From positions 640,001-704,000 of the forward strand of contig CBDDTI010000747.1 in assembly GCA_965233585.1 (NCBI GenBank): 64,000 bases of DNA, written 5' to 3'. This document shows, one piece after another, positions 3,919 through 61,413 of this stretch. How positions within the stretch are numbered: the stretch's first letter is position 1; the number at the start of each line of letters is the position of its first letter. The DNA comes from a bacterium. GTDB lineage: Bacteria; SAR324; NAC60-12. The notes below the pieces were generated by a model. That model did not search any database. It saw only the letters and a list, made by a program, of their open reading frames with translations, and was not told where the DNA came from. Both the position numbers and the translations under genes were made by a program.

Positions 3919-3938
3919 AAGATGAAGCAAGGAAAGGA

Positions 3939-5213: not shown

Positions 5214-5274
5214 TTATATCCTTTTTTATGATAATAGTTAAAGATTCAACACCAACTAATGATGATGAATCAGG

Positions 5275-5303
5275 TTTGTGATGACAAATCAAGTCATCAC
5301 AAA
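5275..5303. terminator. Hairpin TTTGTGATGAC-N7-GTCATCACAAA (copy 3 of 3)
   Basis: Part of duplicated intergenic spacer. Confidence 0.6.
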
Positions 5304-5324
5304 AAAGATGAGGCAAGGAAAGGG

Positions 5325-31294: not shown

Positions 31295-31878
31295 AGTCCC
31301 CCCAAATCACGCAACAGGCTTTAATTCAGGAATTTTTTGAGGCAAATCCTCATCGTGATATATCGCATGCAGAGGCTGTGGATTGGCTTGTCGCAGAATA
31401 TAAAAAAAGAGCAAACAAGGTTTTTAGAGACCCAGATAGAGGAATCAGAAAACTTGCACAAATTGGTTTTCTCATCAAAGTTAAAAAGGGTGTTTATAGA
31501 TACGACCCTCATCTTACACATCAGAGAAGTTTAGAAGATTTTACAGAATCTCAAAAAGAACAAATTAAAAAGAGAGATGAATATAGATGCGTCATTTGTG
31601 GAGCAGGTGAAAAAGATGGAATAGAGTTACATGTTGATCATATCAAGCCCAAAGAATTAGGAGGCGAAGCAACAATAGAAAATGGGCAAGTTCTTTGTGC
31701 CAAGCATAACTTTCAAAAGAAAACATTCAAGCAGACTGAAACCGGTAAAAAGATGTTCATTCGTTTGTATGAATTGGCAAAAGTATCTGGAGATCATCAG
31801 TTGCTTCAATTCTGCAAAGATATTTTAGAATTATTTGAAAAACATGGCATCAATGGACATATCAAATGGGAAAAATAA
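31291..31878 (+). CDS. HNH endonuclease, likely cognate restriction enzyme
   Basis: RD.YRC.ICG..LHVDHIKP...GG.....NGQVLC.KHN. GTGA overlap with the MTase. Confidence 0.85.
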   Translation: MKSPQITQQALIQEFFEANPHRDISHAEAVDWLVAEYKKRANKVFRDPDRGIRKLAQIGFLIKVKKGVYRYDPHLTHQRSLEDFTESQKEQIKKRDEYRCVICGAGEKDGIELHVDHIKPKELGGEATIENGQVLCAKHNFQKKTFKQTETGKKMFIRLYELAKVSGDHQLLQFCKDILELFEKHGINGHIKWEK

Positions 31879-31928
31879 AAATGATTTTTGGCAATTTTTA
31901 AAAAACTACACCAATCAAACAACAGACA

Positions 31929-32681
31929 ATGACAACAGAAGCAGAAGGAATTAGGATTCAAAAAGTGCTGGCTCAGCAAGGGGTTGGCTCAAGGCGTGAG
32001 ATAGAAAAAATGATTGTTGAGCAACATATCATGGTCAATGGAGAACCTGCCAAACTGGGACAACGGGTGAGACCGGGACAAGATAGAATCTTGGTAGAGG
32101 GACAAGGTGTGAGAATTGACAAGCCTGTCAAACGAAAAGTGTATGCCTTTTATAAACCCAAAAATTGTGTGACCACTTTGCATGACCCTGAAGGACGATT
32201 GACTGTGAAAGCATTTTTTCCAAAGACCAAAGAACGTCTTTTTCCTGTCGGGAGGCTTGACTATGATGCAGAAGGATTGTTGCTGCTGACCAATGATGGT
32301 GCATTTGCTGACCGCATCATTCACCCAAGAAATAAGTTGTGGAAGACCTATTTTGTCAAACTGCAATCTGTCTTGAGTCAAGCAGACTTTCATAAAATCC
32401 GAATGGGAATGTATATTGGAAGAGATGAATACACACAGCCTACCAAAGTGAAGTTCTTGCATACCGTGAACGATAAAAGTTGGGTGGAACTCGCCATGAG
32501 GGAGGGGAAGAATCGCCAAATTAAACGAATGATGGAAAAACTTGGCACTCGCGTGCTTAAAATCAAAAGATTCAGCATCGGCAGCATCACACTTGGACCT
32601 TTACAAAAAGGCGAATCACGACTCTTAACACCCCAAGAATTGCAAGAGTTAGAAAAGCTCATTTCAAAGAAAAGCTCCTAA
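31929..32681 (+). CDS. rluB: rRNA pseudouridine synthase (RluB/RsuA family) with S4 domain
   Basis: RIQKVLA..G.GSRR, YKPK, PVGRLDYD.EGLLLLTNDG, EGKNRQIKRM. Confidence 0.9.
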   Translation: MTTEAEGIRIQKVLAQQGVGSRREIEKMIVEQHIMVNGEPAKLGQRVRPGQDRILVEGQGVRIDKPVKRKVYAFYKPKNCVTTLHDPEGRLTVKAFFPKTKERLFPVGRLDYDAEGLLLLTNDGAFADRIIHPRNKLWKTYFVKLQSVLSQADFHKIRMGMYIGRDEYTQPTKVKFLHTVNDKSWVELAMREGKNRQIKRMMEKLGTRVLKIKRFSIGSITLGPLQKGESRLLTPQELQELEKLISKKSS

Positions 32682-32733
32682 CAAGGCACTCCAGCCGACA
32701 GCTAAAGCTACCGCTGAGTTTTTAACGTTAACA
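32676..32733 (+). mobile_element. Integron attC recombination site (58 bp)
   Basis: R'' TCCTAAC, 5 nt, L'' ACTCCAGC, central AGCT-AA-AGCT hairpin, L' GCTGAGT, 7 nt, R' GTTAACA. L''/L' are complementary with one extrahelical base. Confidence 0.8.
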
Positions 32734-32736
32734 CTT

Positions 32737-33504
32737 ATGGGGAAACCAAACATGTCAGATAAAAGTTGGCAAAAAATATTTTTGGACTATCAAATTCTAC
32801 AGCATGATTTTAGTCAGTCGCCATTTATCCTAACTTCCGAAATGATAAAAACGTCCTGTCAAAATTTCACCAAAACGGGGGAGAAAGAAGTACGTATTTT
32901 GTGCAAGCAAGATCATAGAGAAAAAGTACCGACCATTATGGCTGAAAATGGTTTGTTTTTATTACCGGTCAAAAATGGCAAGTATGTGATTGTTAAAGGC
33001 GAAGGATATTTTGATATTCCAGAAATTACCACTAAGGCAAAATTCTATCAATCTAAAATATCCTTTGAATTGGAAACCTCACAAGTTGGCAATTCTGAAA
33101 TGCAACATTTGGATTTTGCCTATGCCACAAGCATCATTAGAACCTTTTTTAACGATGATAGTTTGGTTCTTACCATACGAGGCAGAAAATACACGCCAGA
33201 GTTTTCTTTCTATGTTGGCAATCAAAAAATCACCACAAAAAGCGTTCAAACAGAAGTTGACGCAGGCTATGAGGGTAAAGACAAAATTATCTTGGTAGAG
33301 GCAAAAAATTCAAAAACCCAAAACACTGTCATCAGGCAACTGTTTTACCCATTTAGACAGTGGAGTGAATATACTCAAAAACAAATATGCTTAGTATTCT
33401 TTGAAAAAAGGGACTCTGAGTATATGCTGTGGCAATACAAATTCAAAAACAAAGACGATTATAATAGCATTGAGTTAGTTAATAGTTGTAAATACTATCT
33501 ATGA
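32737..33504 (+). CDS. PD-(D/E)XK type II restriction endonuclease-like protein
   Basis: EVDAGYEG....LVEAK motif, AT-rich, ATGA-coupled to an MTase. Confidence 0.75.
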   Translation: MGKPNMSDKSWQKIFLDYQILQHDFSQSPFILTSEMIKTSCQNFTKTGEKEVRILCKQDHREKVPTIMAENGLFLLPVKNGKYVIVKGEGYFDIPEITTKAKFYQSKISFELETSQVGNSEMQHLDFAYATSIIRTFFNDDSLVLTIRGRKYTPEFSFYVGNQKITTKSVQTEVDAGYEGKDKIILVEAKNSKTQNTVIRQLFYPFRQWSEYTQKQICLVFFEKRDSEYMLWQYKFKNKDDYNSIELVNSCKYYL

Positions 33505-34310
33505 AAGATTACTTTTTTTATCAGTCTGAAAAATCAGTTCTGCTGTATGGAGACAGTTTGTTATTATTGGATAAATTAGCATCCAGTAATAGTCGTTTTG
33601 ATTTGATTTTTGCTGATCCGCCTTATTTTCTTTCTAATGGGGGTATGAGTGTACATGCTGGCAAGCGTGTAAAAGTAGATAAAGGAACTTGGGATAAATC
33701 CAATGGCTTTGATGCTGATTATGAATTTACTTATCAGTGGATTAGTAGATGTAGAGAATTATTAATTGACAATGGTACTATTTGGATTAGTGGTACATTG
33801 CACAATATTTACCTAGTAGGTTTTATACTGCAAAAATTGGGTTTTACTATTTTAAATGACATTGAATGGTTTAAGCCAAACGCCCCTCCTCATCTAGCAT
33901 GTCGTTACTTTGCCCATGCTCATGAAACGCTTTTATGGTCAAAAAAATCTAAAAAATCCAAGCATACTTTTCACTATGAGCAAATGAAAAAATGGCAAGG
34001 TGGCAAAGACATTATCAAAAATGAAAACAAGCAAATGCGCAGTGTGTGGGCAATACCACTTACACCAAAAAGTGAGAAAAAATTTGGCAAACATCCTACA
34101 CAAAAACCTGAAGAACTTTTAAGAAGAGTCATTCTATCTTCCAGTAATGCAGGTGATACTATCCTAGATCCTTTTTGTGGCAGTGGTACAACTGGAGTTG
34201 TATCTGTTCAGTATGGTAGGAATTTTATTGGTATAGATCATAACAGCGATTTCTTAGAGATTGCAAAGCAGAGAATAGAAGAAAAAAGCAATATATTGTC
34301 ATTGTTTTAG
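33501..34310 (+). CDS. Beta-class m6A DNA methyltransferase (DpnA-like)
   Basis: FADPPYFLSNGG..VDKG.WDK, HPTQKP, DPFCGSGTTG. Confidence 0.9.
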   Translation: MKDYFFYQSEKSVLLYGDSLLLLDKLASSNSRFDLIFADPPYFLSNGGMSVHAGKRVKVDKGTWDKSNGFDADYEFTYQWISRCRELLIDNGTIWISGTLHNIYLVGFILQKLGFTILNDIEWFKPNAPPHLACRYFAHAHETLLWSKKSKKSKHTFHYEQMKKWQGGKDIIKNENKQMRSVWAIPLTPKSEKKFGKHPTQKPEELLRRVILSSSNAGDTILDPFCGSGTTGVVSVQYGRNFIGIDHNSDFLEIAKQRIEEKSNILSLF

Positions 34311-35219: not shown

Positions 35220-36782
35220 ATGTCAAACAACCCTTTTGAATTTAAAATAGAACATCAACAAGTTTTCCTTCGGTTTCTCAAACCCTGCTCAGTTTCTAAA
35301 ATTCTTGAACCCCTGCAATATGAACTCTTCCAGTATGAGGTTGAGTATCTGCCAGACAGACTTTTGAAGCTGTCCCAAAATCAAAGTCAAACGTGGCAAT
35401 ATCTTTGCGAGTTTGGCAGCCGTCTTTATCAATACGAAGTCCGTCTTTCTCAAGGACACCATGAAGCCTATTTGACAATCGTCCCGCCCTTTCACGATGA
35501 CATTGAACCCCCAACTTTTGAGGAATTGCACCAAGTGTTAAAGCATCATGGGGTCTTGTCAGGCATTTTGGAATCAGAATGCCAAAAGATGCTACAAGAT
35601 GAAATTTTTTATGAACCTTGTCTTGTGGCAAAGTCTTCTCCTGCGGTGCAAGGGAACAATGGCAAACTTCAAATCATTTATCCTGCTGACAAACACTTCC
35701 ATCATTTACAGCAAATCAATTATCGTGAAAAAGGGACGTTGAGAACGGTTGTGCAAGGTGAATGGATTGCACGATTGATTCCCCCCACTACTGGGCAAGA
35801 TGGTTGGCTAGTCAATGGTCAAATTCTTTCTGCCAAAGCAGGCAAACCTTGTAGAGTGTATGCAGGAAAAGGGGTCACTTACAACCAAGACACTCATCAA
35901 TTTCATACAGAATCTGCAGGCTTTTTGCTTTTTGACAACAAACGATTGTCTGTGGAAAACATTTTGCGTGTGCCTTGTGTCAATCCAGAAATTGGCAATC
36001 TTAACTTTGATGGCAAGCTCTACATTGAAGGAGACGTGGAAGATGGCTATGAAGTCCGTGCCACTCAAGGCATTGAAGTCAAAGGAGTCGTTGGAAAGTC
36101 GTTGTTGGAAACCGATGGTTCTCTTTATATTCATGGGGGCGTCTGGGGTGCAACACTCCGTGCCAAGCAAATCATTTTTTTCCGTTTTGCATGTGATGCT
36201 AAAGTGCAACATGCCAGACACATCTACATTCAGCATTATGCCACGCACTGCGATTTGGAGGCTGAGGTGTCAGTCAAGGTGAAGGCACAAGATGGCTTCA
36301 TTTATGGTGGAAAAACAAGGGCAGGGCTTTTGATTTCTCTACCAAATGCAGGGTCTGAAAAGTGGGAAGTGACCAGCATCTTTCAAACAGGACTTTCTGC
36401 AAAAGAGGCTCAAACGTTGGCTTCTACTAAACAACAAGCTAAGCAACTTGAAGAATTTAAACGTCTGCGACACCAGTACATCAAACACCGTCAAAACATC
36501 AATCCCAAGCCCTTTCAAACGCTTTGTAACAACCTTCATGCACAAGCACGACTTCAACATCGTTTCAAGGAAACAGGGCATTCGTTCCAAGATGGAGTCA
36601 TTTTGGTCAATAATCACATCTTTCAAGGCAGTCAAATTCAAATAGGGCAGGCAGGCTATCTTGTCCAAACAGCACTCAAACATGTTGCTTTTATTGCACC
36701 CAAGTCCAAAGTCACCCCAACAGACATAGATGACCTAGACCTTCAAAAATTTCTCATTGCCAAATCACATCATGCAAATTGA
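35220..36782 (+). CDS. FapA / DUF342 family protein
   Basis: L...GV..GI, P.QG.NG, PPT.G.DG..V.G, GNL.FDG..I.GDVEDG.EV.A..GI.V.G, C-terminal I.QG.QIQIG. Confidence 0.8.
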   Translation: MSNNPFEFKIEHQQVFLRFLKPCSVSKILEPLQYELFQYEVEYLPDRLLKLSQNQSQTWQYLCEFGSRLYQYEVRLSQGHHEAYLTIVPPFHDDIEPPTFEELHQVLKHHGVLSGILESECQKMLQDEIFYEPCLVAKSSPAVQGNNGKLQIIYPADKHFHHLQQINYREKGTLRTVVQGEWIARLIPPTTGQDGWLVNGQILSAKAGKPCRVYAGKGVTYNQDTHQFHTESAGFLLFDNKRLSVENILRVPCVNPEIGNLNFDGKLYIEGDVEDGYEVRATQGIEVKGVVGKSLLETDGSLYIHGGVWGATLRAKQIIFFRFACDAKVQHARHIYIQHYATHCDLEAEVSVKVKAQDGFIYGGKTRAGLLISLPNAGSEKWEVTSIFQTGLSAKEAQTLASTKQQAKQLEEFKRLRHQYIKHRQNINPKPFQTLCNNLHAQARLQHRFKETGHSFQDGVILVNNHIFQGSQIQIGQAGYLVQTALKHVAFIAPKSKVTPTDIDDLDLQKFLIAKSHHAN

Positions 36783-41838: not shown

Positions 41839-42375
41839 ATGAAAATTTTAACATACATTAAAAATAACGCTGAGAGTTTAATGAACTCTTTTGGATTGTT
41901 TGGCTTCTTCCAAGGTTTTTTGAAAGGAACAAAAAAACTTGTTAGATCATTTTTGACCTTAGCTTTAGGAATGACCCTTATCTTTGTTCTAGCTGGGTGC
42001 GCTAAAGATGATGATGATTCTTCTGGTAGTGATGATGATGATCCTCATTTCAATGATCCTTATTTCAATAATCATTATGATGATGATAGTGATAGCCAAG
42101 TAACAATTTTAACCTTAAAAAATGAAACTAGTCAGCCCTTTGGTAAATTTTATATTTCTCCTAGCAGTTCTGATGATTGGGGAGACGATATGCTTCCAAA
42201 GACTTTGTGGCCAGGAGAGAAGTATAAATTTACTATTTCTGATTGTAATAAGGAATACGATTATAAATCAGTAGATTTTAAAGGTCGGGTGAGCATTATG
42301 AGAAGAGATTACGTGAAATGTGGTGAAGATTTTATTTTAAGAGTCCTTAGATTCAGAGACCGAGATGAATCTTAA
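41839..42375 (+). CDS. Lipoprotein with Asp-rich linker
   Basis: Lipobox LAGC, poly-D tract, N.T......YISPSS.DDWG.D.L...L.PGE...C.YD domain. Confidence 0.75.
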   Translation: MKILTYIKNNAESLMNSFGLFGFFQGFLKGTKKLVRSFLTLALGMTLIFVLAGCAKDDDDSSGSDDDDPHFNDPYFNNHYDDDSDSQVTILTLKNETSQPFGKFYISPSSSDDWGDDMLPKTLWPGEKYKFTISDCNKEYDYKSVDFKGRVSIMRRDYVKCGEDFILRVLRFRDRDES

Positions 42376-42516
42376 TCTCCTTAGATCTTTTAGTAATTAG
42401 ACTTCTTTAAGCTCTACAAAAATAAACACTCATTTAGGTAGATGATTTTTTTTGGAGTCACTGATTAGGGTTTTATCTAAACCCCCCAGCTTATCCAAGT
42501 AGTTTCCATCAAAGCA

Positions 42517-42568
42517 ACCTGACTGACACGCCCCCACAAAGAATGAACCACTTTCTGGTCAGTCAGGT
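42517..42568. repeat. 11-bp inverted repeat ACCTGACTGAC / GTCAGTCAGGT
   Basis: Arms at 42517-42527 and 42558-42568. Confidence 0.7.
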
Positions 42569-42930
42569 CTATCCCAATAGCCCTCTTTCAATTTCTAAAT
42601 CTCTTTTCTTTTTCTACTTTCCCATTTTTTTAAAATGGAGAAGTTCATCAAATGCCTTAATGACTAAAGGTTGATGATTCTATTCTGTTTGAAGACAGAT
42701 ATTAGCTTCATCTGTAAAGCCCTTTGTCCTTTCAAAAATTTTCTTTCTTTATTTTATTGATTGAATGCAGAATCTTCACAACGCAGGTGGTCTCTGAGCA
42801 GTTTTGACGTTCTTTGGCAATTTTTTAAAAAAGAGACTGCTTGAGTTAGGACTAGTTGATTCAGAAAGTGGTATGTTCTTTGCAAAAGGTATCGTGTCAG
42901 TCAGAACGATGTTAAAATAGGATTGAATCT

Positions 42931-44022
42931 ATGAAAAGGCAATTTTTAGTTATTGGTTTACTTGTTTGGTCAACGATTCTCTTTGCTCAGGAGCAAGAAG
43001 AGGTCATTCCTGACTCAGAGACAGAGAACTCTTCAGAAGAAGGTTGGAAGAGCAAGTGGAATGACCCCCGTATGAGACAACTTGAAGAGATTTCAGGAAA
43101 GCTGGAGACTTTAATGAACAAGCAAGTCAATGTGTCTTCTGCCGCAGTTTACGAGGTGCGTTTTTCCCCACAGATTGACAAGAATTTTAGGCAAGCGGCA
43201 TTGAGCAAGATGTATCAAGTCTTTAGCCGTGTTCCAGATTTTTATGCCGCACGTTGTGATGAATGCTTTCAAATCCGTACTAAAGTGTCAGGTAACACTT
43301 TGCGTGTAAGTCGTGGGATTGCAGACCCTGAACATCGGCGTAAAATTGCAAGACGTATGAACACAGAAGGATTTATGAAGATCATCATCTCCCAAGTAGA
43401 TCAACAACTTTCTGTTGCCATTGAAATTTACGGGGCAAAGAATGGACAGCTTCTTTTTAGTGAAGTGGTGGCAGGAACGCCTCCCATTCCTGAACCCAAT
43501 GCCTTTGATTTGTATGTAGGTCAAATGAGGTTTGACGTTGCCTTTGAGTCTGAGTCTGCAGATTTTTCCGAAACACAAACCTATCAGCTACCAACTTTGA
43601 CGTTTGGAAAGTCTTATCAAATTCTGGAACATTGGTATTTTACAGGAGACATTAGCATTTTGGCGGATATAAGTCAGAAAGAAGAAGATGCACCGGAGGT
43701 CACTGGGGGCTTTTCAGGACTTGCCTTTTATGGAAGAAGTATTTACGACTTTATCAATATTGGTGTCAATGACAATGTCAGTTTTGGACTCATTACAGGG
43801 ATTGGGCAATGGCTTTCTCCACAGCTCAAATTCCCTGTTTTGTATGCTGTGGGGTTGCGTATGATGATGGGCAGGACTTTCTTGTTTAACTTTGAATACA
43901 TTTCTACTGAAATTAAAGAGGTTCAAGCCACATACACCGACCCAGAAACAGAAGAAGAAGTGGAAGACATGAAAGCATCTGTCAATTCCGCAACCAGTGT
44001 CTCTTTAGGAATCCGTTTTTAG
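42931..44022 (+). CDS. Exported protein, alpha/beta N-domain (CxxC) plus beta-barrel-like C-domain; first gene of motor-like operon
   Basis: Signal peptide, CDEC, C-terminal amphipathic strands ending SLGIRF. Confidence 0.7.
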   Translation: MKRQFLVIGLLVWSTILFAQEQEEVIPDSETENSSEEGWKSKWNDPRMRQLEEISGKLETLMNKQVNVSSAAVYEVRFSPQIDKNFRQAALSKMYQVFSRVPDFYAARCDECFQIRTKVSGNTLRVSRGIADPEHRRKIARRMNTEGFMKIIISQVDQQLSVAIEIYGAKNGQLLFSEVVAGTPPIPEPNAFDLYVGQMRFDVAFESESADFSETQTYQLPTLTFGKSYQILEHWYFTGDISILADISQKEEDAPEVTGGFSGLAFYGRSIYDFINIGVNDNVSFGLITGIGQWLSPQLKFPVLYAVGLRMMMGRTFLFNFEYISTEIKEVQATYTDPETEEEVEDMKASVNSATSVSLGIRF

Positions 44023-44025
44023 GAA

Positions 44026-45636
44026 ATGATCATGAACTTACAAACTCAATTTTCAGTTGCTCTTTTGACTAGCCTTGCACTTGGGGCGTGTTCTTCAAAA
44101 AGTGATATTGAAGTAGAACAGAATCCAAATACTTCTCGTGTGATCTATACGCATACAAGAAAAAATGAAGTGGTTACAGTGACGGAAGAAAAAACCAAAG
44201 ATGAACATTTGATTCGTGTCAATATAGAACGTGATGGTGAGGTTTCAGAGGCAGTGCATCAAATCCAAGAGCATAATTTTGTCTTTGAAGTGCCACTGAG
44301 AGAAGCCCCTGCTGGAGTATTGGCAAGGAAAGTTGCAGACTATGAAGCCTACATTCAAAAAATCTTTTATGAAGAGATTGCCCAGCACATCTCCACTCAA
44401 CGTTTCACAACGACTGTCAGGGTGTCATGGGATGCGGGTCAGCTAGATACGTTGGATTCTAACTATGACGACCTCAAAACGGACACCTCACAAGTAGATG
44501 TCAGACTAGGCAGTGCCATTTCAAAACTTGATGTGTCAGTCTTGATAGATCAAGGGTTGCCCTCTCGCTATGATGAATTTGTCAAACAACTGATTTTGGC
44601 ACAATATTTTTTCCGTCCTACCAGAGGAGATGCTTTTGAAGTCAGACGTGCCGTGTTTCCTGCCCAAGACTTTTTAGGCAATGACTTTCAATCACGGCTT
44701 TTGACTTATGAATCAGAGGTTCGTCAAAGGTTTGACCAAACTTTAAATCAACACATTGACCCAGAAAATTTTGAAGTTTCATCAAGAATTTTTTGGAATC
44801 AACAAAAACTAGAAGACCTCAAGTTCCAATATCAAAAAGACTCTGGACAACGTCAATCTTCGCAAGATGTTCAATTTGTGACGGCTGTTGACAAACTGCA
44901 AGTAGCAGTCTTATTGGATAGGAATTTATCCAAAGAAAATGATGAATTTGTCAAGTCTCTTGTCTCTGCGCAAGCAGATTTTCAGCAGGACAGAGGAGAT
45001 GAGGTCAAGGTGCAACGAATCATCTTTCCTGCCAAAGGTTCTGTTGGTGTGACGCATAGTGAGAAGTTGGAGAAAACCTTGCGAGACCTCTTGACCAGCT
45101 ACATTGCACCTAAAAACTTTTTTGTTAAAGTTCAACTCTTACCCCCGAAAGAAGCAGACCAAGCAGGCAGGGCGCCTATCCATGTTGGAGTGGTTTTGAA
45201 TGACTTGCTTGACCCAAAAATTGATGACTTTGTCAGGCAAATCATTCCTTTTACTTTGAATACTGATGAAGAATACGGAGACGTCATAGAGGTGACTCGC
45301 AAACGATTCCCCGAAAATCCTGAAATCTCTCAACAAACCGCAGTTTCCAGCCCTAGCACCAATGACGTTGCTCAAACCCAAGAGGTTCAAGACATCTTTG
45401 AACAAATCAGGATTTATTATGAACAAATGGATTATGACAATGCTTTGGAATTGACTCAAAGGGCATTGATTATCGCATCTGACCGTGAGCAAAAAGTGAA
45501 ACTGCTCAAGATGAAGGGGTCTTTGCATTACTTGTTGCAAGAGCCTGAAAATGCACGCAGGGCGTGGAATGAAGTGTTACGGATTGAACCCAGCGATGAG
45601 GAAGCTAAACAATCTTTAAACATGATTGACTCATGA
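44026..45636 (+). CDS. Lipoprotein with three tandem FliF-C-like ring domains and C-terminal TPR
   Basis: Lipobox LGAC. Three repeats ending RGDAFEV..VFP / RGDEVKV..IFP / YGDVIEV..RFP. TPR ending A..AW..VL.IEP...EA. Confidence 0.7.
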   Translation: MIMNLQTQFSVALLTSLALGACSSKSDIEVEQNPNTSRVIYTHTRKNEVVTVTEEKTKDEHLIRVNIERDGEVSEAVHQIQEHNFVFEVPLREAPAGVLARKVADYEAYIQKIFYEEIAQHISTQRFTTTVRVSWDAGQLDTLDSNYDDLKTDTSQVDVRLGSAISKLDVSVLIDQGLPSRYDEFVKQLILAQYFFRPTRGDAFEVRRAVFPAQDFLGNDFQSRLLTYESEVRQRFDQTLNQHIDPENFEVSSRIFWNQQKLEDLKFQYQKDSGQRQSSQDVQFVTAVDKLQVAVLLDRNLSKENDEFVKSLVSAQADFQQDRGDEVKVQRIIFPAKGSVGVTHSEKLEKTLRDLLTSYIAPKNFFVKVQLLPPKEADQAGRAPIHVGVVLNDLLDPKIDDFVRQIIPFTLNTDEEYGDVIEVTRKRFPENPEISQQTAVSSPSTNDVAQTQEVQDIFEQIRIYYEQMDYDNALELTQRALIIASDREQKVKLLKMKGSLHYLLQEPENARRAWNEVLRIEPSDEEAKQSLNMIDS

Positions 45637-46703
45637 AATATCTGATTTTTATTATTCTTTTACTGACTGCACCAGTCATGCTTTTGGCTCAACAAGAAGT
45701 CAGAGACCAAGCTGATGACATCTTTCAGCAACTGATGGGACAAGATGCTCCATCAAGAGAAGAAGGAGAGGCTGAACCGACTCAAACGGCTGAAGCACCA
45801 CAGGTGGAAGCAGAAGCAGAGCCTGAAAACTCTCAACAACCTGCTAACTCTGAAAATGAAGTCACACAAGAGCAAGACTCTATCACGCCTTTGCAACTGC
45901 AAGAGATGTTGCGAGCATCTATCAAACAAGAAATCAAAATTCCTGATGAGGCTCAACGTCAGTTTAATGACAAACAGCTTAGTCAAAAAGTGAAAGAGTT
46001 CTTAAAACTTTCATTGTCTGAAAGACTCATAGATGTCGTGGTGGACACTCGTTACATTGTGCAGTTAGTTCCCATTGTGAAAAAAAGTAGTCAACTTCAA
46101 AAAATCAAATTGCCCGGTTTTGAAAACTACGTTTGGACTCCTGCATTTAAAAATCATAACTTATCGTTTTCTTATCAAACCAGACCTTACCGTACTTATT
46201 TTATTCTTCTCAATGGTCCAAAGACCCTTGTCAACTACGATTTGGTTCAAAAACGCATTGTTGAAATAGACCCTACTACCGATTGGGAAAATCGGGATTT
46301 GCTGAGAGTGATCAATGTTTCTTACGAGACACCTGAATCTTCCCCTTTGCAGATTGCTCAACAAAAACAGACTCAACAAGAAGAAATTCCCCAAATAGAA
46401 CCCAAAGAGGCAGTGCCAGCACCCCTTTCTTTGGAAGAACAGTTGGAACAGGAGAAGCAGTTTAGTAAACACTTGCTTTCTGCAAGAGATGAGTTTTTTA
46501 AGGACAATTTAGATGCGGCATTGGATAACCTGATTGAAGCCATCAAGTTTAATCCTAAATCTGCTCAAGCCTACGAGATGCTTGGCTCTGTTTACTATCG
46601 TTTGGATTGGAAGGAGAAGGCATTGCATTACTGGGGAAAGTCATTGGAACTTTACCCAGATAATAAGACTTTACAAAGATATTATGACAATTTGAGACAA
46701 TGA
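45633..46703 (+). CDS. Exported protein with degenerate FliF-like domain and C-terminal TPRs
   Basis: Signal peptide. LPGF and RDLLRV..VSY segments parallel the next gene. AYEMLGSVYYRL..A..YW..SLELYP.N TPR. Confidence 0.65.
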   Translation: MKYLIFIILLLTAPVMLLAQQEVRDQADDIFQQLMGQDAPSREEGEAEPTQTAEAPQVEAEAEPENSQQPANSENEVTQEQDSITPLQLQEMLRASIKQEIKIPDEAQRQFNDKQLSQKVKEFLKLSLSERLIDVVVDTRYIVQLVPIVKKSSQLQKIKLPGFENYVWTPAFKNHNLSFSYQTRPYRTYFILLNGPKTLVNYDLVQKRIVEIDPTTDWENRDLLRVINVSYETPESSPLQIAQQKQTQQEEIPQIEPKEAVPAPLSLEEQLEQEKQFSKHLLSARDEFFKDNLDAALDNLIEAIKFNPKSAQAYEMLGSVYYRLDWKEKALHYWGKSLELYPDNKTLQRYYDNLRQ

Positions 46704-48499
46704 AATGGTCAGCTATGAAACTGTGGCAACTTCTGCTTGCATTTTTGTTGGCATCGTCTGTTTTTGCACAAGAACGAGTGCCTTCTTTGCAACAGTATGA
46801 ATTAGGGCTTGAAAGTAAGATTCGCAGAAATTTAGAACACTACTTACAACCTAAAGACTATGTGTTGCGTGTGTCAGCACTAGGCAGTCCTTATGTTGCC
46901 CAAGAGATTTCTCCAACAACTCAAGTTGCTCAACCTGTTGAAAGTTTGCCCGGATTTTCTGCAGACCCTCCAGAAACACCAGTTGTTCAACAGATTCCTA
47001 AATCAAACACTCCAACACTTTGGGAGGTCTCCAGAGTTCAAATAGACCTTATCATGCACAAAGAGATTTCCTCTTCTTTGCAAGAATATCTGTTAAGGTC
47101 TGTTCCTTTGATTGCTGGATTGATTCCAGAGCGAGGCGATGCTTTTAATTTCCTACCAATCACCCCCAATGAAGTCATTAAACTTGAACCAGAAGAAGAA
47201 GCACCTGTTGAACCCTTAGAAAATTTGGAAGAAGAGCCACTTGTTGAACCTTTGACATGGTATGAACAACTTCATCAACAATATGGCATTTGGACTTGGG
47301 TTGCTTTGGGTGTAGTCGTATTCTTGTTTTTATTGCTTCTCATTTTATTGTTCAGACGTCCTAAAAAAATGGTTGAACAACCTGTGCAACAAGCAACACC
47401 TGATTTGAAACAACAGTTTGAACAAGAAAAACAAGAGGTTGAAAAGGAACGCACCAAAAAGATGCAAGACTTCTTTGCCCAAGAAGAACAAACCAAACTT
47501 GTTCAAGAGATTGTCAAAGAATTGATAGGACATGAAGATTGGAAAACAGAGCTTGTCCATGAATGGAGTAAAGGACGTAAAGACAAACTTCCTTTGCTGA
47601 TTTGTGCTTTGGGAACATTCACCTCAAGAAGTCTCTTTGCTAAGGTTCTGGGGTCATCTGTGTATGGAAAACTGGAACGAACCGCCAACGATTTGTCTCC
47701 TCAAGATTCAGAAATCGCTGACATTCTCAAAGAATCCTATGACTTCATCAAAGCCAAAAGTATTGACACCCCTCAAAAATATCAAAATGACCCGTTCCGT
47801 TTTTTAGATGAGTTAAGTCCTTCACAAGTCAGTTTTTTGGTGAAAGATGAACCCATCAGAATCAAAGCGATTGTGTTAAGCCGTCTGAACAGTGAGGGTG
47901 TCTCGCAGATTCTCAAAAAAATGCCTCCAGATGAACAATCGCAAGTTTTGATTACGATAGGCAATTTACATGAATTGCCCCTTGACCTGATTGAAGGGGT
48001 GGCAATGGAGTTAACCTCTAAATTGCCTGACTTGCCTGACGAAAACACAGCCTCTTTTGATGGGGTGGACATGTTGGCAGACCTCATCACTTTTGCTGAC
48101 AATCAAACAAGAAGGGACATTTTGAAACAGCTTAAACTCAATGACCAAAAGCTAAGTCTGAAAGTAGAAGAGCGAAGTTTTGTTTTTGAATCTATCCCTT
48201 TGATTCCCAAAGAAGTTTTAACAGAAGCGGTAAGACGCATGAACTCTGATGATGTTTTGACAGCATTTGTTGGGGCAGATCGTGAAATCCAGAAAGCAGT
48301 CATCTTGTGTTTTAATGAGACAGTGCGTGGCAATATGGTCTCTCAACTCAAAGCCAAGTCTCCAACTGCTGGTGAGATTGATGATAAGAAACGATTGTTT
48401 GTGGCACAAATCAGACAACTAGCAGACGAAGGAAAGATTGCCCTCAAAGACCTTTATCTGAACTGGCAAAAACGAAGCAGAAAAGCAAGAGTCGCCTGA
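46700..48499 (+). CDS. FliF-like periplasmic domain + TM helix + FliG middle/C-terminal domain fusion
   Basis: Signal, LPGF, ERGDAF, TM WVALGVVVFLFLLLLILLFRR, then DPFRFLDEL..Q...LVKDEP...AIVLSRL and SFVFESI..IRQLADEGKI.L matching the FliG-M/FliG-C pattern. Confidence 0.8.
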   Translation: MKWSAMKLWQLLLAFLLASSVFAQERVPSLQQYELGLESKIRRNLEHYLQPKDYVLRVSALGSPYVAQEISPTTQVAQPVESLPGFSADPPETPVVQQIPKSNTPTLWEVSRVQIDLIMHKEISSSLQEYLLRSVPLIAGLIPERGDAFNFLPITPNEVIKLEPEEEAPVEPLENLEEEPLVEPLTWYEQLHQQYGIWTWVALGVVVFLFLLLLILLFRRPKKMVEQPVQQATPDLKQQFEQEKQEVEKERTKKMQDFFAQEEQTKLVQEIVKELIGHEDWKTELVHEWSKGRKDKLPLLICALGTFTSRSLFAKVLGSSVYGKLERTANDLSPQDSEIADILKESYDFIKAKSIDTPQKYQNDPFRFLDELSPSQVSFLVKDEPIRIKAIVLSRLNSEGVSQILKKMPPDEQSQVLITIGNLHELPLDLIEGVAMELTSKLPDLPDENTASFDGVDMLADLITFADNQTRRDILKQLKLNDQKLSLKVEERSFVFESIPLIPKEVLTEAVRRMNSDDVLTAFVGADREIQKAVILCFNETVRGNMVSQLKAKSPTAGEIDDKKRLFVAQIRQLADEGKIALKDLYLNWQKRSRKARVA

Positions 48500-49470
48500 T
48501 GCTAGAAAGAATCATCACCTTCTTTGGAATTATCATAGGAATTGGATTAATTGGCTTTGGGATTGTTTGGCCTGATAAATATTCTAATGCCTATCTTTAC
48601 AACATTGCACTGATGGAAGCAGACATCAAAGCGATGCAAGAGGCACGGACTCCTTTTGCACAAGTGCAGGCTAAAAGGAGGGAATTGGAAACCTACCGCG
48701 AATCTATTCCTGCCAATGTGGCTCGCTTTCTTGATTTGAAATCTTTTGTCATTGTGTTTGGTGGGTCTTTTGCCGCCTTGCTCATTGCTTTCCCTGCCAG
48801 AAAATCACTGCGGGCATTTTTGTTCATCTCCTCTGCTTTTTTTGGCAAAGACAAGCAAGGGTCAGAATTTGCAGAATACTACAGCACCTTTGTCAAATTT
48901 TCTGAAAAACTCTCTGCACGGGAACTCATCACCGACGAAGACTTTGCATCAATTGAAGACAAAAGACTTCGGGAATGGTTAGAGTACTTCACTGCATCAG
49001 ATTCTGTGCCTGAGGAGATGATTCAAGAAATTATTCGCTCTGAAATTGCCGCCGTAGAACGTACATCAGAAGAAGAGGCAGAACTCCTTGACTTTATGTC
49101 TAAGGTTGCACCTGCATTTGGCATGATTGGAACGGTCATTGGTTTGATTTTGATGCTCGGCAATGTGAATGCAGATGACATTGATATTTTTAAAATCATT
49201 GGTGCAATGGGAGTCGCTATGATTACAACACTTTATGGGGTGGCAGTAGCAAATCTTATCTTCACTCCGATTGCTACCAAACGAAGAAGCCTGATGTATT
49301 CAGAATTGTATCTGATGGAAATGGCAAGAGAGGGAATCCTTTATCTCAAAAACAAACAAACTCCAGAACTTGTCTCAAGAGACCTTATTATTTATTTGCC
49401 AGATAGGATTAGACAACGAATTGAGCAAGAGAAGTTAGAAAAACTCAAATCAGGTGATTTAGGTCTATGA
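48499..49470 (+). CDS. motA: MotA/PomA-like stator A subunit
   Basis: S.VIVFGGS.AALLIAFP, APAFGMIGTVIGLI.ML, MGVAMITTLYG..ANL.F.PIA.K, EGIL. Confidence 0.88.
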   Translation: MLERIITFFGIIIGIGLIGFGIVWPDKYSNAYLYNIALMEADIKAMQEARTPFAQVQAKRRELETYRESIPANVARFLDLKSFVIVFGGSFAALLIAFPARKSLRAFLFISSAFFGKDKQGSEFAEYYSTFVKFSEKLSARELITDEDFASIEDKRLREWLEYFTASDSVPEEMIQEIIRSEIAAVERTSEEEAELLDFMSKVAPAFGMIGTVIGLILMLGNVNADDIDIFKIIGAMGVAMITTLYGVAVANLIFTPIATKRRSLMYSELYLMEMAREGILYLKNKQTPELVSRDLIIYLPDRIRQRIEQEKLEKLKSGDLGL

Positions 49471-50102
49471 GAAAGAATGTAGGAGAATCAACATGGATGG
49501 TCACTTATGCAGACATGGTCACCTTGCTGTTTATCTTCTTCATCTTGTTGACTGCCATCTCTGCACGTCCCAAAAACTGTAAAAATATCAGTGATTACAT
49601 GGCATCTAATCCACAGAATTTTGCCAACTACGAGCTTCGTGCTACCAAATTACAATGTATCATTTCTCTCCCTCAGGATTTTTTGTTTTCTTCAGGCGAG
49701 GCAAAGCTGAAAGAAGGGGCATTGCGTGAGTTATCCCCTTTTTTTCAAATGATCAAAAACCTTCCTGAACACCAAGAAGATTTAGTCGTGGTAGAAGGAC
49801 ACACTGACAATGTACCAATCCGCACCAAAGAGTTCCCAAGCAACTGGGAGTTAAGTTCGGCTCGTTCTCTTTCTGTGGCAAGGTTTCTGGTGGACCGTCT
49901 TGGATATGCCCAAGAGACAGTGTCAGTCAAAGCCTTTGCAGACACCCGCCCCAAAGTCCCCTATCAAGACCCCTACAATCGCCCACTCCAAGGAAATGAG
50001 CTTAAAAATGCAAGAAAAGCGAACAGACGCATTGAAGTCCTCATCATAGACCAACCCCGCTCCAGAGAAGATGCCAGCATCCTCTTTCAAACTGTCCAAT
50101 AA
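49467..50102 (+). CDS. motB: MotB/PomB-like stator B subunit with OmpA domain
   Basis: WMVTYADMVTLL..FFILL, LFSSG.A.L, VEGHTDNVP, NWELSSARS, NRRIE. Confidence 0.9.
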   Translation: MRKNVGESTWMVTYADMVTLLFIFFILLTAISARPKNCKNISDYMASNPQNFANYELRATKLQCIISLPQDFLFSSGEAKLKEGALRELSPFFQMIKNLPEHQEDLVVVEGHTDNVPIRTKEFPSNWELSSARSLSVARFLVDRLGYAQETVSVKAFADTRPKVPYQDPYNRPLQGNELKNARKANRRIEVLIIDQPRSREDASILFQTVQ

Positions 50103-50148
50103 GCCTACCTTTTAGTGAAGTCAAACAATGACTAGCACCTCAAACGTT

Positions 50149-52050
50149 CTATGGAAGGATTGGTAAGGATTCTGCCAAAGTAGATTTGAAAAAAATGACT
50201 TGCGGTGCAAACAACAGTGTTTGTTCTTGTTGCAAATAGGAGTCACTTTGAAAACTTGCAGAATTGAGAGAGTGCAGTTGTTTTAGATGAAAGAGTGCAT
50301 CATCATTTCGTTGTGTTTGGGCATAGATGAGGCTTAATCGTTGTAAAAAGATGTCATGTTGCAAAGTGGATTGTCGTCTTTGAAGGAAAGAGACAAGCAG
50401 TTGTTCTGCTTCTTGAAGCATTCCCATCTTGACGTAAAGCAGGCTTAAATCGTCAATCAAAGAGACTTGTTCAGGGAACAACTGATACCCTTGCTCGTAA
50501 ATCTTTTGTGCTTCTTTGTCTTGTTTAAGATATTGCAACGCCCGACCTGCTTGTAAATGCAACAAACCTGCTCCTTTTTTTGCGTTGAGAAAGGGCTGCA
50601 AATAAGTCAAAGTGTTGTCATAGCGTCCCATTTGATTGAGAATGCTGGCGTGAAGATAAGCAATGTCTTCACTGGATTGTTTTGACAAATTTTGGGTCAT
50701 AGCAAAGGCTTGCTGATAACGTTTTTGAAAGTAAAGCAGTCTTGCCAAAGTAAATCTGACTTTGGGAGTGTCTTGAAGTTCTTGCAGTTGCAAGGTCAAT
50801 TTTTCTGCAAGTTCATACTGACCACGCAAGATGTAAAGGTCTATTTGCAAATGCAATAATTGTGGGTCAAGTGAAGATTCTGCTTGCATTTCATTGAGTG
50901 CATTTTCCACACGGTTCCAGTTTTGGGTTTGCATGTCTCTTTGAATTTTAAGCATCTGATAACGTTGGTTGCTAAAATCCAACTCCAATGCTCTAGCAAG
51001 CTCATTGTCTCCTTGTAAAGTGTTGCCTTCCTTGAACAAAACCAGTGCCAGTAAATATCTTGCTTCTGCCTGCATTTCATCTATTTCCACAGAACGTCTC
51101 AACCAGATTTTTGCCTCTTCAAATTGGTCTTGATACAGAAAGACTGATGCCAATAACACCATGCTTTTTGCATCAAGTGGAACGTCTTCTAAAAGATTTT
51201 GCAAAGTTTGTTGTGCAAGAAGCCACTTCTTTTGTTTGATGGCAATGCGGGCAAGAATTTGTCTTTCTAAGACACTATAAGGTTCTTGGGTTTGTGCAAG
51301 AATCGCTTTGTCGTTTCCTTGTAAAAAGAGAATTTTCAGTAAATATTCCTTCGCTTTGGCAAGGGTTGGTTCGTCTGCCAATAATTGTTGAACTAAGACT
51401 TTGGCATGGTAATAATTCCCTTGTAGCATCTGAATTTGCACCTCTAAAAGCCGATATTCTGGATTGCTTGGTTCAAAGAGTAGGACATTTTTCAAATGAT
51501 TTTCTGCCACTTCAAAGTCACGTTGTTTGATGTTGAGTCTTGTCAGATAGGCTTGAATTTCTAAGGTAGGTCCTGAACGTTGCAATGCCACTTCCAATGC
51601 GCCAATAGCACGTTCGTTGTCTCCAATCCTCTCATAAGTCATTGCCAGTTTGAGGTAGGCAGAGATGAGGTCACGGTCTAACTTAATGGCTGTGTTCAGG
51701 GAGTCAATAGCACGGCTATACTTCTTATTTTGATACGCAATGCTTCCTAATAGCTCAAAGTAAATTCCAACGATGGGAGAAAGGCTTAACGCTCTTTGAA
51801 TGTTCAGTTCCGCTTGTTCTAAATTTTGTTGTTCAAAATAAGCCAACGCTAGCTGATAGTATGCAACGGCGTCATTCTTGTTATTCTGAATGCGGGTTTG
51901 TTGTTCAGTAATAAACTGTTCTTTCTGTAATGCGTCCATTCTCTCAAACTGTTCAAGCGTCGTTGGAGAGGTGCAAGCAAGGCTTAAGAAGCACAAAAGA
52001 CTAAGGACGTGTGATGGTATAGGTTTGAGAAGGCGAGCTTTCATTGCCAT
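50149..52050 (-). CDS. TPR-repeat lipoprotein
   Basis: Lipobox SLAC, many TPRs (AYYQLALAYFEQ, AYLKLAMTYERIG). Start uncertain. Confidence 0.8.
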   Translation of the reverse strand: MAMKARLLKPIPSHVLSLLCFLSLACTSPTTLEQFERMDALQKEQFITEQQTRIQNNKNDAVAYYQLALAYFEQQNLEQAELNIQRALSLSPIVGIYFELLGSIAYQNKKYSRAIDSLNTAIKLDRDLISAYLKLAMTYERIGDNERAIGALEVALQRSGPTLEIQAYLTRLNIKQRDFEVAENHLKNVLLFEPSNPEYRLLEVQIQMLQGNYYHAKVLVQQLLADEPTLAKAKEYLLKILFLQGNDKAILAQTQEPYSVLERQILARIAIKQKKWLLAQQTLQNLLEDVPLDAKSMVLLASVFLYQDQFEEAKIWLRRSVEIDEMQAEARYLLALVLFKEGNTLQGDNELARALELDFSNQRYQMLKIQRDMQTQNWNRVENALNEMQAESSLDPQLLHLQIDLYILRGQYELAEKLTLQLQELQDTPKVRFTLARLLYFQKRYQQAFAMTQNLSKQSSEDIAYLHASILNQMGRYDNTLTYLQPFLNAKKGAGLLHLQAGRALQYLKQDKEAQKIYEQGYQLFPEQVSLIDDLSLLYVKMGMLQEAEQLLVSFLQRRQSTLQHDIFLQRLSLIYAQTQRNDDALFHLKQLHSLNSASFQSDSYLQQEQTLLFAPQVIFFKSTLAESLPILP

Positions 52051-60299: not shown

Positions 60300-61413
60300 T
60301 CAAAAAATAGAAAGGTAGGCTTTTTTAGAAAGGGCAACTTTGATGAAGCTGTCAAGCTCTCCACCTAAAACTGCAGAGGTATTGCCTGTTTCATGGTTGG
60401 TGCGATGGTCTTTGACCATCTGGTAAGGGTGCAGTACATAGCTGCGGATTTGACTACCCCACGCATTTTCTTGTTTTTCTGCATGAAGTTTGTCTTTTTC
60501 TTTGTTGGCTTCTTGAAGTTCACGTTCATAAAGGCGAGCTTTGAGAACTTTCATAGCAGTTGCACGATTTTTATGCTGAGACCTCTCATTTTGACATTGC
60601 ACAACAATTCCTGTTGGTAGATGTGTGATTCTGACTGCAGAATCAGTGGTATTGACATGCTGACCTCCTGCACCACTTGCACGATAAGTATCTACTTGAA
60701 GTTCGTCAGGTTTGATTTCAAGGTCAATCTCTTGTTCAATGTCAGCATAAACAAAGACTGATGCAAAAGAGGTATGACGTCGTTTATTGGAGTCAAAAGG
60801 AGAAATCCGCACCAAACGATGCACGCCATGTTCGGTTTTTAGCTTGCCGTAAGCGTACATGCCTCCAACTGCAAAAGACACAGATTTGATGCCAGCTTCG
60901 TCTCCTGCAAGAAAATTTAACTCTTCTACTTTGTAGCCACAACGAGTTGCCCATTTAAGATACATGTCATAAAGCATGGCTGCCCAATCACTTGACTCTG
61001 TACCTCCTGCCCCTGGGTGAATTTCAACAATCGCATTGCCTTCATCATGTTGCTGTGAAAACAAATGCACAATTTCTAATTCCTCACTTTGACTTTCTGC
61101 ATGCTCTAAATTTTGGGCAACCTCTGACAGAAAATCAGCATCTTCACTTTCTTGATAAAGTTCTATGGCGATTTGAATTTCTTCACAAAGCGAGGCAAGT
61201 TTATCATACTGACTGATGATATGAGCAAGATTGGAGGCTTGTTTAAGAACTTTGGCACGTGCGTCAGGTTCTAATTGCCAAAAAGTGTCTTGCGAGGTCT
61301 CATTTTGAAGTGTTTCAAGTTGGGTCTTTTTTGAGGCAATGTCAAAGATACCCCCGCAAACTGATTAAACGAGTAGCAATGACTTCACAACGAGCTTGAT
61401 AGTCTTCAATCAT
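60300..61413 (-). CDS. prfB: Peptide chain release factor 2 with programmed +1 frameshift (about 370 aa)
   Basis: ATG 61413, 23 codons to GGGGG TAT CTT TGA C (61341-61355). The +1 frame continues to SPF and GGQ motifs. Confidence 0.96.

Follow-up and report, generated by a model that had tools for sequence, protein, structure and literature searches.

Architecture of gene D

The 64,000-nucleotide (nt) stretch of DNA analyzed here, termed the window (positions 640,001 to 704,000 of the forward strand of contig CBDDTI010000747.1, assembly GCA_965233585.1, from a bacterium of the SAR324 lineage), carries six co-directional genes, A-B-C-D-motA-motB, from position 42931 to 50102. These genes are tightly packed, with a gap of 3 nt between A and B and overlaps of 4 nt at B/C, 4 nt at C/D, 1 nt at D/motA and 4 nt at motA/motB. 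The fourth of them, gene D, is an open reading frame (ORF) that had been proposed, from the sequence alone, to encode a natural FliF-like/FliG fusion, and this original prediction is borne out by Pfam, by Foldseek and by a profile of the N-terminal part only, which retrieves true FliFs. The features of D are listed below (RBM, ring-building motif).

46700..48499, + strand: gene D, 599 amino acids (aa), ATG start; RBM3-like domain, one transmembrane helix and FliG (N-like region, M and C) in one chain
46700..46768, + strand: putative signal peptide, aa 1-23, VFA/QE cleavage; hydrophobic window at aa 5-23, read by eye
46784..47167, + strand: periplasmic ring-building domain, aa 29-156; AlphaFold2 secondary structure and Foldseek matches to FliF RBM3/S-ring
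47288..47353, + strand: transmembrane helix, aa ~197-218; Kyte-Doolittle mean of 3.19 at aa 200-218, AlphaFold2 helix at aa 188-218
47399..47779, + strand: long cytoplasmic helix (aa 234-276) and FliG-N-like helical region (aa 277-360); Foldseek
47789..48031, + strand: FliG-M domain, aa 364-444; Pfam FliG_M and alignments
47843..47866, + strand: EHPQ site of FliG-M, reading KDEPIRIK; alignments
48128..48445, + strand: FliG-C domain, aa 477-582; Pfam FliG_C
48308..48355, + strand: torque-helix equivalent, CFNETVRGNMVSQLKA; residue mapping to Salmonella FliG, family consensus CFPEKxRxxLVSSLK

The FliG-M/C-like domains originally placed at about 47789-48440 are recovered by Pfam above its cutoffs, both for FliG_M (aa 374-444, E = 4.2e-11, 43.3 bits, cutoff 25) and for FliG_C (aa 477-582, E = 3.9e-12, 46.8 bits, cutoff 23.3), and the closest solved relative of D is the FliG-MC fragment of T. 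maritima (1lkv, E = 5.4e-14). Residues 361-582 of D align with positions 106-328 of the 338 in the TIGR00207 fliG profile, with a score of 76.5 bits that falls under the equivalog cutoff (226.7), and NF004260 yields 23.9 bits for a cutoff of 550. The AlphaFold2 model of D, built with a 23-sequence alignment, is all-helical from the long helix to the C-terminus, and all 13 of its Foldseek matches in the PDB with E ≤ 0.001 are FliG. Full-length FliG chains cover 309-334 columns of the model (320 for the 328-aa Salmonella FliG 8umx_B, 334 for 3hjl), with E = 4.8e-9 for full-length FliG. The M and C domains are thus recognized by sequence and the FliG-N-like region by fold; in the 23-sequence alignment the latter conserves G277, R278, D280, W281, G305, R310 and E326, and two distant relatives (P0092 and P0147) carry Pfam FliG_N immediately ahead of FliG_M.

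The N-terminal half of the original description also holds. The signal peptide can be read by eye as a hydrophobic stretch (aa 5-23) followed by VFA/QE, with the AQ(E/D) junction kept across the family in the 23-sequence alignment, and the periplasmic domain contains both LPGF (aa 83-86, nt 46946-46957) and ERGDAF (aa 144-149, nt 47129-47146), the RGD itself being aa 145-147 (nt 47132-47140). AlphaFold2 models this domain as alpha(30-45)-beta(54-65)-[low-confidence insertion 69-103]-beta(107-119)-alpha(125-139)-beta(148-153). The single transmembrane helix predicted at 47291-47355 is placed at ~47288-47353 by Kyte-Doolittle and AlphaFold2; its core (aa 200-218) is the sole strong transmembrane segment of D and is followed on the cytoplasmic side by RRPKK. 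Chains of the FliF RBM3/S-ring form the second group of Foldseek matches (E = 0.017-0.2, target TM-score 0.44-0.51), headed by 8z4g_1 (E = 0.017, target TM-score 0.51, 159 columns) and followed by 6sd1, 7bk0, 8t8p and others. Pfam YscJ_FliF, which describes the SctJ-like RBM1-RBM2 region, has no match in D at E ≤ 0.01, and neither does D itself match YscJ_FliF_C, though this domain is seen in 10 of 36 FliG-bearing relatives scanned.

Hence, D is a 599-aa type I membrane protein, unlike the soluble FliG of ~330 aa that is bound non-covalently to the FliF C-terminus. Chance resemblance is excluded by the FliG E-values together with the family-conserved LPGF, R145/G146/D147, E384, P385 and K389. 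We regard D as a new combination of the FliF and FliG families and a member of neither, since it departs from FliG in equivalog score, EHPQ, torque charges and solubility and is missing FliF RBM1-2. An MgtE-N identity for the C-terminal part was considered and rejected (MgtE_N, 18.2 bits, under the cutoff of 25.9; top Foldseek matches all FliG).

Switch site and torque helix

The EHPQ motif of FliG-M binds FliM. In D it falls on E-P-I-R in the pairwise alignment to 1lkv and on D-E-P-I, one residue off, in the family profile alignment; either way the motif is absent, as had been predicted, and it is found in 0 of 39 aligned superfamily members. The Arg of the extended EHPQR motif corresponds to T419, and in the absence of EHPQ(R) D has no recognizable FliM site. 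The replacing motif, DEPxKIKA, has E384, P385 and K389 invariant in the 23-sequence alignment. The predicted replacement of MFxF by SFVF (aa 493-496, MFVF in FliG) and of the GG hinge by DG (aa 454-455) is likewise seen in the alignment to 1lkv.

The torque charges (K264, R281, D288, D289 and R297 in Salmonella/E. coli numbering) were mapped on Salmonella FliG (8umd_B, numbered 219-323). K264 corresponds to V524, R281 to T541, D288 to S548, D289 to Q549 and R297 to a gap, the torque-helix alignment being gap-free, so that none of the five charges is kept in the window copy of D. The claim that the canonical torque charges are absent is correct for this protein and too strong for its family: the R281 site holds Lys or Arg in 29 of 39 superfamily members, the acidic pair not being conserved, and R543 of D, a basic residue two positions past the canonical Arg site, is at least 90% conserved in the 23-sequence alignment. 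FliG R281 and D288/D289 pair with MotA E98 and R90, according to PMC12505986. A diverged stator interface, also part of the original prediction, agrees with the replaced charges; with R543 kept, and with an invariant Asp (D146) in the MotA encoded next to D, the contact of a D ring with its stator looks remodelled rather than abolished. Alignment to FliG, named beforehand as a possible refutation, yields neither an EHPQ motif nor the torque charges in D and assigns its C-terminal part to FliG, not to MgtE-N.

The D family and its wider relatives

A first homology search with D, covering the ~600-aa length class, returned 47 proteins of ~600 aa whose source names include SAR324 cluster and Lambdaproteobacteria. 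Besides LPGF, residues R145, D147, E384, P385, K389, P446, D447, G455, F494, F496 and F538 are invariant in the 23-sequence alignment, and G146, C537, P539, E540, R543 and K551 are conserved in at least 90% of the sequences. A broader, 39-sequence alignment of the superfamily retains LPG in 39/39 members and RGD in 37/39, and in the tree derived from it (all 39 rows kept, midpoint root for drawing only) the SAR324-type (LPGF) group is a single, well-supported clade (100/100).

The profile of the N-terminal 235 aa of D, which contains no FliG sequence, matched 107 of the 1.84 billion representatives searched, at E ≤ 0.001. Fifty of these were scanned with Pfam, and 36 of them bear FliG_M and/or FliG_C C-terminally, even though the query had no FliG. 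Ten of the 36 also present YscJ_FliF_C near residues 100-190 (at 230-287 in the LysM-bearing P0131). Among the remaining scanned proteins, four are true short FliFs (YscJ_FliF plus YscJ_FliF_C) matched at their RBM3-TM2 part (E = 2e-4 to 6e-4), five have YscJ_FliF_C without FliG (P0070, P0075, P0080 and P0087 resembling the product of gene B) and five have nothing relevant by Pfam. Ten of the distant clusters were looked up, and their named members come from metagenome-assembled genomes (MAGs) carrying the rather weak labels Bacteroidota, Pseudomonadota, Deltaproteobacteria and Elusimicrobia; distant members are annotated as hypothetical, 'FliG C-terminal domain-containing' or 'FliG'. As a lead only, Atlas look-alike clusters consist of 500-720-aa FliG_C/FliG_M proteins, with Balneolota, Bdellovibrionota, Pseudomonadota, Bacteroidota and Elusimicrobiota as commonest phyla. 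These alignments and profile matches indicate that D is not a one-off: it is a member of a conserved SAR324-type family nested in a wider set of RBM-transmembrane-FliG fusions, with relatives apparently spread over several phyla, cultured groups among them.

A homology search with aa 361-599 of D, aimed at a canonical SAR324 FliG, gave five family members only among 1725 candidates. Two apparent short homologues, P0045 and P0046, are D-family members truncated by contig ends and not split forms; a third, P0047, looks similar. In one SAR324 MAG (locus L013) the D orthologue occupies two ORFs (L013:9929-10636 and L013:10868-11857), which may be due to a frameshift, to a sequencing error or to genuine disruption of the gene.

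The stator genes

Two stator-type genes follow D directly.

48499..49470, + strand: motA, MotA-type stator A subunit, 323 aa, four transmembrane helices; Pfam MotA_ExbB, E = 5.4e-23, 81.6 bits, above cutoff
49467..50102, + strand: motB, MotB-type stator B subunit, 211 aa, one transmembrane helix, plug and OmpA-like peptidoglycan-binding domain; Pfam

Among solved chains the former matches MotA (6ysf, E = 1.2e-28) and PomA (8bri, E = 3e-19), the alignments beginning at residue 72-83 of the window protein and none reaching its first 71 residues. The protein has a conserved periplasmic insertion of ~58 aa between the first and second transmembrane helices (aa 24-81), in which P25, D26, S29, N30, Y32, S69, F77, D79, K81 and S82 are invariant, and the orthologues share in addition a C-terminal SGDLGL tail (aa 318-323). 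MotB presents its transmembrane segment at aa 15-33, with Asp16 within YADMVT, and both MotB_plug (E = 6.9e-13, 48.4 bits) and OmpA (E = 1.1e-13, 51.7 bits) above their Pfam cutoffs. At the equivalog level of NCBIfam neither protein is assigned: the best match of MotA is MotP (142 bits, cutoff 394), and those of MotB (MotD, MotB and MotS) all lie below their cutoffs, the best being MotD (114.7 bits, cutoff 283). TolQ and ExbB score weakly (E = 2e-4 and 1.7e-3, respectively).

By our reading of the alignments to solved MotA, D146, which is invariant in 7/7 orthologues, falls at the putative E98-equivalent site. The putative R90-equivalent site, eight positions before it, is Arg in six of the seven and Leu (L138) in the window protein. 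Comparison of the D torque helix with MotA revealed no pattern of covariation among seven pairs, too few to judge. The long MotA has 520 matches at E ≤ 1e-20; the best 120 of these measure 264-323 aa (117 of them 318-323 aa), four carry SAR324 names, identity is 45-49% bar the four closest, and coverage is 93-100% bar one 264-aa fragment. With its conserved insertion and tail, the long MotA is a distinct subfamily, common in marine SAR324.

In our best reading, to which we give about an even chance, D is the subunit of a ring rotor that would work without switch or secretion and be powered by a stator of its own.

A Zorya identity for the stator pair was also examined and discarded, since ZorA scores 21.7 bits over transmembrane helices 3-4, ZorB matches via the OmpA/MotB part only, and neither a ZorA tail nor ZorC, ZorD or ZorE was found by PADLOC. 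The same scan gave nothing for genes A, B and C.

Operon partners of D

The three genes upstream of D encode predicted envelope proteins, two of them with tetratricopeptide repeats (TPR).

42931..44022, + strand: gene A, 363 aa, signal peptide, periplasmic alpha/beta domain and C-terminal small beta-barrel ending in Phe; AlphaFold2 model, predicted local distance difference test (pLDDT) 83, predicted TM-score (pTM) 0.59
44026..45636, + strand: gene B, 536 aa, lipoprotein (LALGAC) with three RBM-like repeats and C-terminal TPR; lipobox, Pfam
45633..46703, + strand: gene C, 356 aa, signal peptide, one RBM-like domain and C-terminal TPR; alignment, Pfam TPR

Gene A has no sequence match in Pfam, NCBIfam or PDB. 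Foldseek relates its modelled barrel to OmpA-TM, Ail, OmpX and OmpW (target TM-score 0.5-0.57) and its N-terminal domain to LpoB-C and TolB-N, and the Atlas look-alike clusters are LpoB, TolB_N and OMP_b-brl; on this model, A is likely to be an outer-membrane protein. In B, each repeat ends in RGD..V.V..FP, and Pfam detects YscJ_FliF_C (aa 276-334, E = 2.1e-8) as well as TPR. The profile of B reaches FliF 12dr_A (E = 0.002), and hhalign pairs it with the N-terminal domain of D (probability 96.8%, E = 2.2e-10). The product of gene C, in which KLPGF (aa 159-163) is invariant, also pairs with that domain (probability 82%, E = 1.1e-5). Judging from these profile comparisons, the B and C domains are paralogues of the D RBM. 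The window copy of B is unusual in having three RBM-like repeats, against two in most orthologues, with an inserted block of ~100 columns unique to it. The paralogues and the outer-membrane barrel, together with the FliG-N-like region (fold only), the family status of D and R543, do not figure in the original prediction.

The nature of A and B brings up a different reading, in which the complex would not rotate and would work as a force transducer of the Tol-Pal/TonB kind: the stator would pull or deform a static D/C/B scaffold, with FliG acting as a stator dock only, and would energize some process at the outer membrane, for instance tethering, constriction at the division site or control of lipoproteins or peptidoglycan. 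The resemblance of the A periplasmic domain to TolB-N and LpoB-C, shared by its Atlas look-alikes, agrees with such a role, as do the TPRs, which suggest static protein-protein scaffolding, and the combination of a lipoprotein with a modelled outer-membrane barrel, since a continuous chain from inner to outer membrane would be hard to spin. We regard this reading as quite unlikely nevertheless. To our knowledge, FliG-C and flagellar-type MotA occur only as a rotor-stator pair; RBM3-type domains build closed rings, as in FliF and SpoIIIAG; MotB has a flagellar plug and not a TolR/ExbD architecture; and the TolQ and ExbB scores are only weak.

Conservation and genomic context of the operon

A genome scan identified 29 D loci, all in records named SAR324, 'Deltaproteobacteria' or unclassified, and 28 of them are marked as MAG in their titles, strain TL4 (locus L001) being the exception. 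The A-B-C-D order is present in 19 loci, that is, in all 19 that are complete upstream; the other ten are cut by a contig end, within the cluster or just upstream of it, and none contradicts the order. MotAB adjoins the A-D cluster in the window and in six of the 29 loci. The pair follows D in the window and in L001, and precedes A in five others (L016, L021, L024, L026 and L028).

The constancy of this arrangement bears on whether D might be a decaying remnant of a flagellar fliF-fliG region without present function, comparable to the orphan flagellar genes of Chlamydiae. Decay would explain the lost canonical motifs and the long branch of the window copy; it is nonetheless very improbable, given an intact reading frame, LPGF, RGD, DEPxKIKA and CFPE..R motifs that are invariant or nearly so across 23-39 sequences, a gene order kept in 19/19 loci and relatives in MAGs labelled as several phyla.

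Within the 64-kb window no flagellar structural or export genes were found, a FapA-family protein being the sole flagellum-named match. Pfam analysis of 53 neighbours in eight loci revealed housekeeping genes, with no further conserved partner and no flagellar genes except FliP in locus L003. Promoter and terminator scanning of positions 42300-50300 was uninformative, the counts being at shuffle expectation (10 vs 12.7 and 7 vs 6.8).

In strain TL4 the operon appears to run on past motB, the next start overlapping the motB stop, with two genes (L001:11296-13665, 789 aa; L001:13823-15904, 693 aa) for proteins with CarboxypepD_reg and Calx-beta domains that may be surface or periplasmic partners; these have no counterpart after motB in the window. 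Three of the loci with MotAB upstream of A contain an extra small TPR protein of 214-231 aa between A and B (L016:7043-7687, L024:7055-7720 and L028:7029-7724), which accompanies that arrangement and is absent from the window operon.

A predicted ring machine and its alternatives

In the model we propose, the six genes would encode a machine that spans the envelope and is made of flagellar motor parts, with D as its rotor subunit in the inner membrane, no type III export apparatus genes in its operon and no docking site for FliM/FliN. D would assemble into a membrane ring by means of its RBM domain and of FliG domain stacking; ring formation is expected because RBM3-type domains build closed rings in FliF. 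MotB would anchor MotA5B2 units to the wall, and ion flow would turn the MotA pentamer against the FliG-C domain of D, through a contact in which a pair of MotA D146 with R543/K541 of D would be kept and one of the R90-D288/D289 type lost. The ring would then turn in one direction in the membrane, unless regulated by means other than CheY-FliM, as CheY-driven reversal is not anticipated for a protein without a FliM site. In the periplasm, torque would pass to, or against, rings of B and C and from these to A in the outer membrane. An outer-membrane barrel accompanied by periplasmic TPR/RBM proteins suggests an output at the cell surface, where movement or remodelling of the surface would rank first.

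On a larger scale, A-D and MotAB could constitute a free-standing rotary organelle, that is, a ring of fusion subunits with a dedicated flagellar-type stator and no type III secretion core, rod, hook, filament or switch, coupled via paralogous periplasmic rings to an outer-membrane barrel. We advance this wider proposal tentatively, as one that falls clearly short of an even chance. Several observations weigh against the rotor model. First, the marine SAR324 contig L003 carries fliP (L003:359-1189, Pfam FliP, E = 5.5e-82) and fliQ (L003:1214-1486, Bac_export_3, E = 2.3e-24) ~5 kb upstream of A, with genes for Lon, a uridine kinase and, on the opposite strand, an ankyrin-repeat protein in between, so that flagellar genes exist in at least some of the hosts and D could be part of a flagellum. 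Second, 13 other complete loci, of marine type, have no MotAB within the available flanks, and for this reason D may use a stator shared with, or identical to, the flagellar one. Third, the window MotA is of the flagellar PomA/MotP type, and the window D/MotA pair is the most degenerate, with T541 in D and L138 in MotA. Finally, the window D sits on a long branch (1.08; the other seven rows in its clade range from 0.33 to 0.47), its RBM domain gives modest fold matches (E = 0.017-0.2) and the pTM of the whole D model is only 0.30, as expected of beads on a string, so that local matches are relied on.

Some of these observations would also suit the main rival, a flagellar accessory module, in which D, B and C would be extra rings or scaffold around a genuine motor and D would recruit, hold or gear MotAB as the stator of that flagellum. 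TPR and lipoprotein scaffolds exist around the flagellar motors of Campylobacterota, Vibrio and spirochaetes, and the TPRs of B and C, the contig shared by fliP, fliQ and A-D in L003, the flagellar-type MotA and MotB, with plug and OmpA domain, and the FapA-family gene at 35220-36782 all fit such a module, as do the charged residues that MotA retains at the putative R90-equivalent (6/7 orthologues) and E98-equivalent (7/7) sites, with which it could also serve a canonical FliG. We consider this explanation unlikely, if far from negligible, because A-D lies outside any flagellar gene cluster in the window and in 8/8 loci with scanned neighbours, the three genes listed above separating it from fliPQ in L003, and because a second, membrane-tethered full FliG ring would have no precedent that we know of. 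Furthermore, look-alike clusters have Bacteroidota or Elusimicrobiota as their commonest phylum and one relative comes from a Bacteroidota-labelled MAG; these labels are weak, and Bacteroidota are rarely flagellated.

The free-standing organelle, if real, would add another class to the ion-driven machines of the envelope, next to flagella, Tol/Ton, Agl-Glt and GldLM-T9SS (type IX secretion system), and would provide living evidence of a flagellar rotor-stator module working, and maybe once evolved, independently of the export apparatus.

Comparison with known systems

The flagellar rotor (FliF plus FliG, driven by MotA5B2 or PomA5B2) shares with D a periplasmic ring domain (RBM3 in FliF, RBM3-like in D), a transmembrane helix and FliG, and its stator resembles the window pair, in which MotA is flagellar-type and MotB has a channel Asp, a plug and an OmpA-like domain. 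However, the flagellar rotor is made of two polypeptides and D of a single chain without RBM1 and RBM2, the first transmembrane helix of FliF being replaced by an apparent cleavable signal peptide. D also differs in the loss of EHPQ(R) and, in the window copy, of all five torque charges; the window operon, in turn, has no export-gate, rod, hook or switch genes and contains instead RBM+TPR paralogues and a barrel protein, and its MotA carries the 58-aa periplasmic insertion.

The closest natural precedent of D is the FliF-FliG fusion of the Chlamydiaceae. As described by Bergeron (2016, PeerJ, PMC4768692), this protein of ~330 aa has two transmembrane helices, an RBM2-like domain plus a second RBM, and a FliG-M-like region only, and is proposed to interact with the injectisome protein SctQ. 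Like D, it attaches a FliG-like domain in the cytosol to a shortened FliF periplasmic region and a transmembrane segment, and its setting lacks a complete flagellum; it differs in that D has 599 aa, one RBM3-like domain and a full FliG and lies beside MotAB, no linked stator being mentioned for the chlamydial fusion in that description. Engineered Salmonella/Vibrio FliF-FliG fusions still assemble rings (PDB 8z4d/8z4g; PMC11481574), and D matches 8z4d_1 in sequence (E = 5.1e-12) and, at the S-ring part, in fold. These constructs combine full-length FliF and FliG (945 aa) with canonical motifs, whereas D is natural, much shorter and divergent in its motifs.

Agl-Glt, GldLM/T9SS, Tol-Pal and Ton follow a logic similar to that of A-D plus MotAB, with an ion-driven 5:2 motor in the inner membrane, periplasmic TPR/lipoprotein links and an outer-membrane barrel; as far as PMC13104615 and PMC12505986 describe them, they use TolQR, ExbBD or GldLM-type motors and no FliG/FliF parts, whereas here the motor is flagellar-type and FliG would be the driven element. 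FliG and FliF are not mentioned in a 2026 gliding review (PMC13104615). The ZorAB proteins of Zorya are likewise MotAB homologues outside the flagellum, to which the window pair is only generically similar. No description of a membrane-anchored FliG with MotAB was found in full-text literature searches, which do not extend to subscription-only papers, and A-D plus MotAB looks like an undescribed ion-driven ring machine of flagellar motor parts.

In the debate on flagellar origins, a central question is whether the rotor, the stator and the secretion core existed separately before, and the A-D plus MotAB operon, without export genes, offers a concrete, expressible system in which to test a secretion-free rotor. 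D is also useful for addressing the minimal requirements of torque, being a FliG of natural origin in which the FliM site and the classical charges are gone and invariant motifs of its own are kept. At a more practical level, some public annotations name D-family members 'flagellar motor switch protein FliG', and motility surveys based on fliG hidden Markov models, such as the pipeline outlined in PMC10359470, could miscount them, with inflated motility calls from metagenomes as a result.

Other features of the window

Several genes away from the operon deserve mention.

667-1479, + strand: PilZ-domain protein
3238-5924, - strand: four tandem paralogous genes of ~196-205 aa
7331-12745, - strand: giant UvrA-like double ABC protein, 1804 aa
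30497-34310, + strand: two N6/N4 DNA methylases, an HNH endonuclease and a DUF6996/DUF6997 protein, with a pseudouridine synthase between
35220-36782, + strand: FapA-family protein (FapA_N plus beta-solenoid)
60300-61347, - strand: release factor 2 gene

The PilZ-domain and FapA-family proteins are the sole other genes of the window with a motility or cyclic di-GMP flavour. The four tandem paralogues have no Pfam match; they show 55-58% identity to the first copy, and each has a lipobox-like LALAAC. The UvrA-like protein, with UvrA interaction and ABC ATPase domains and a match to a DnaJ-type zinc finger, is unusually long, and the run of genes at 30497-34310 looks like a restriction-modification or defence islet. 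Finally, the ORF listed for release factor 2 is without its N-terminus, and CTTTGAC lies upstream at 61341-61347 (- strand), a layout consistent with the usual programmed +1 frameshift.

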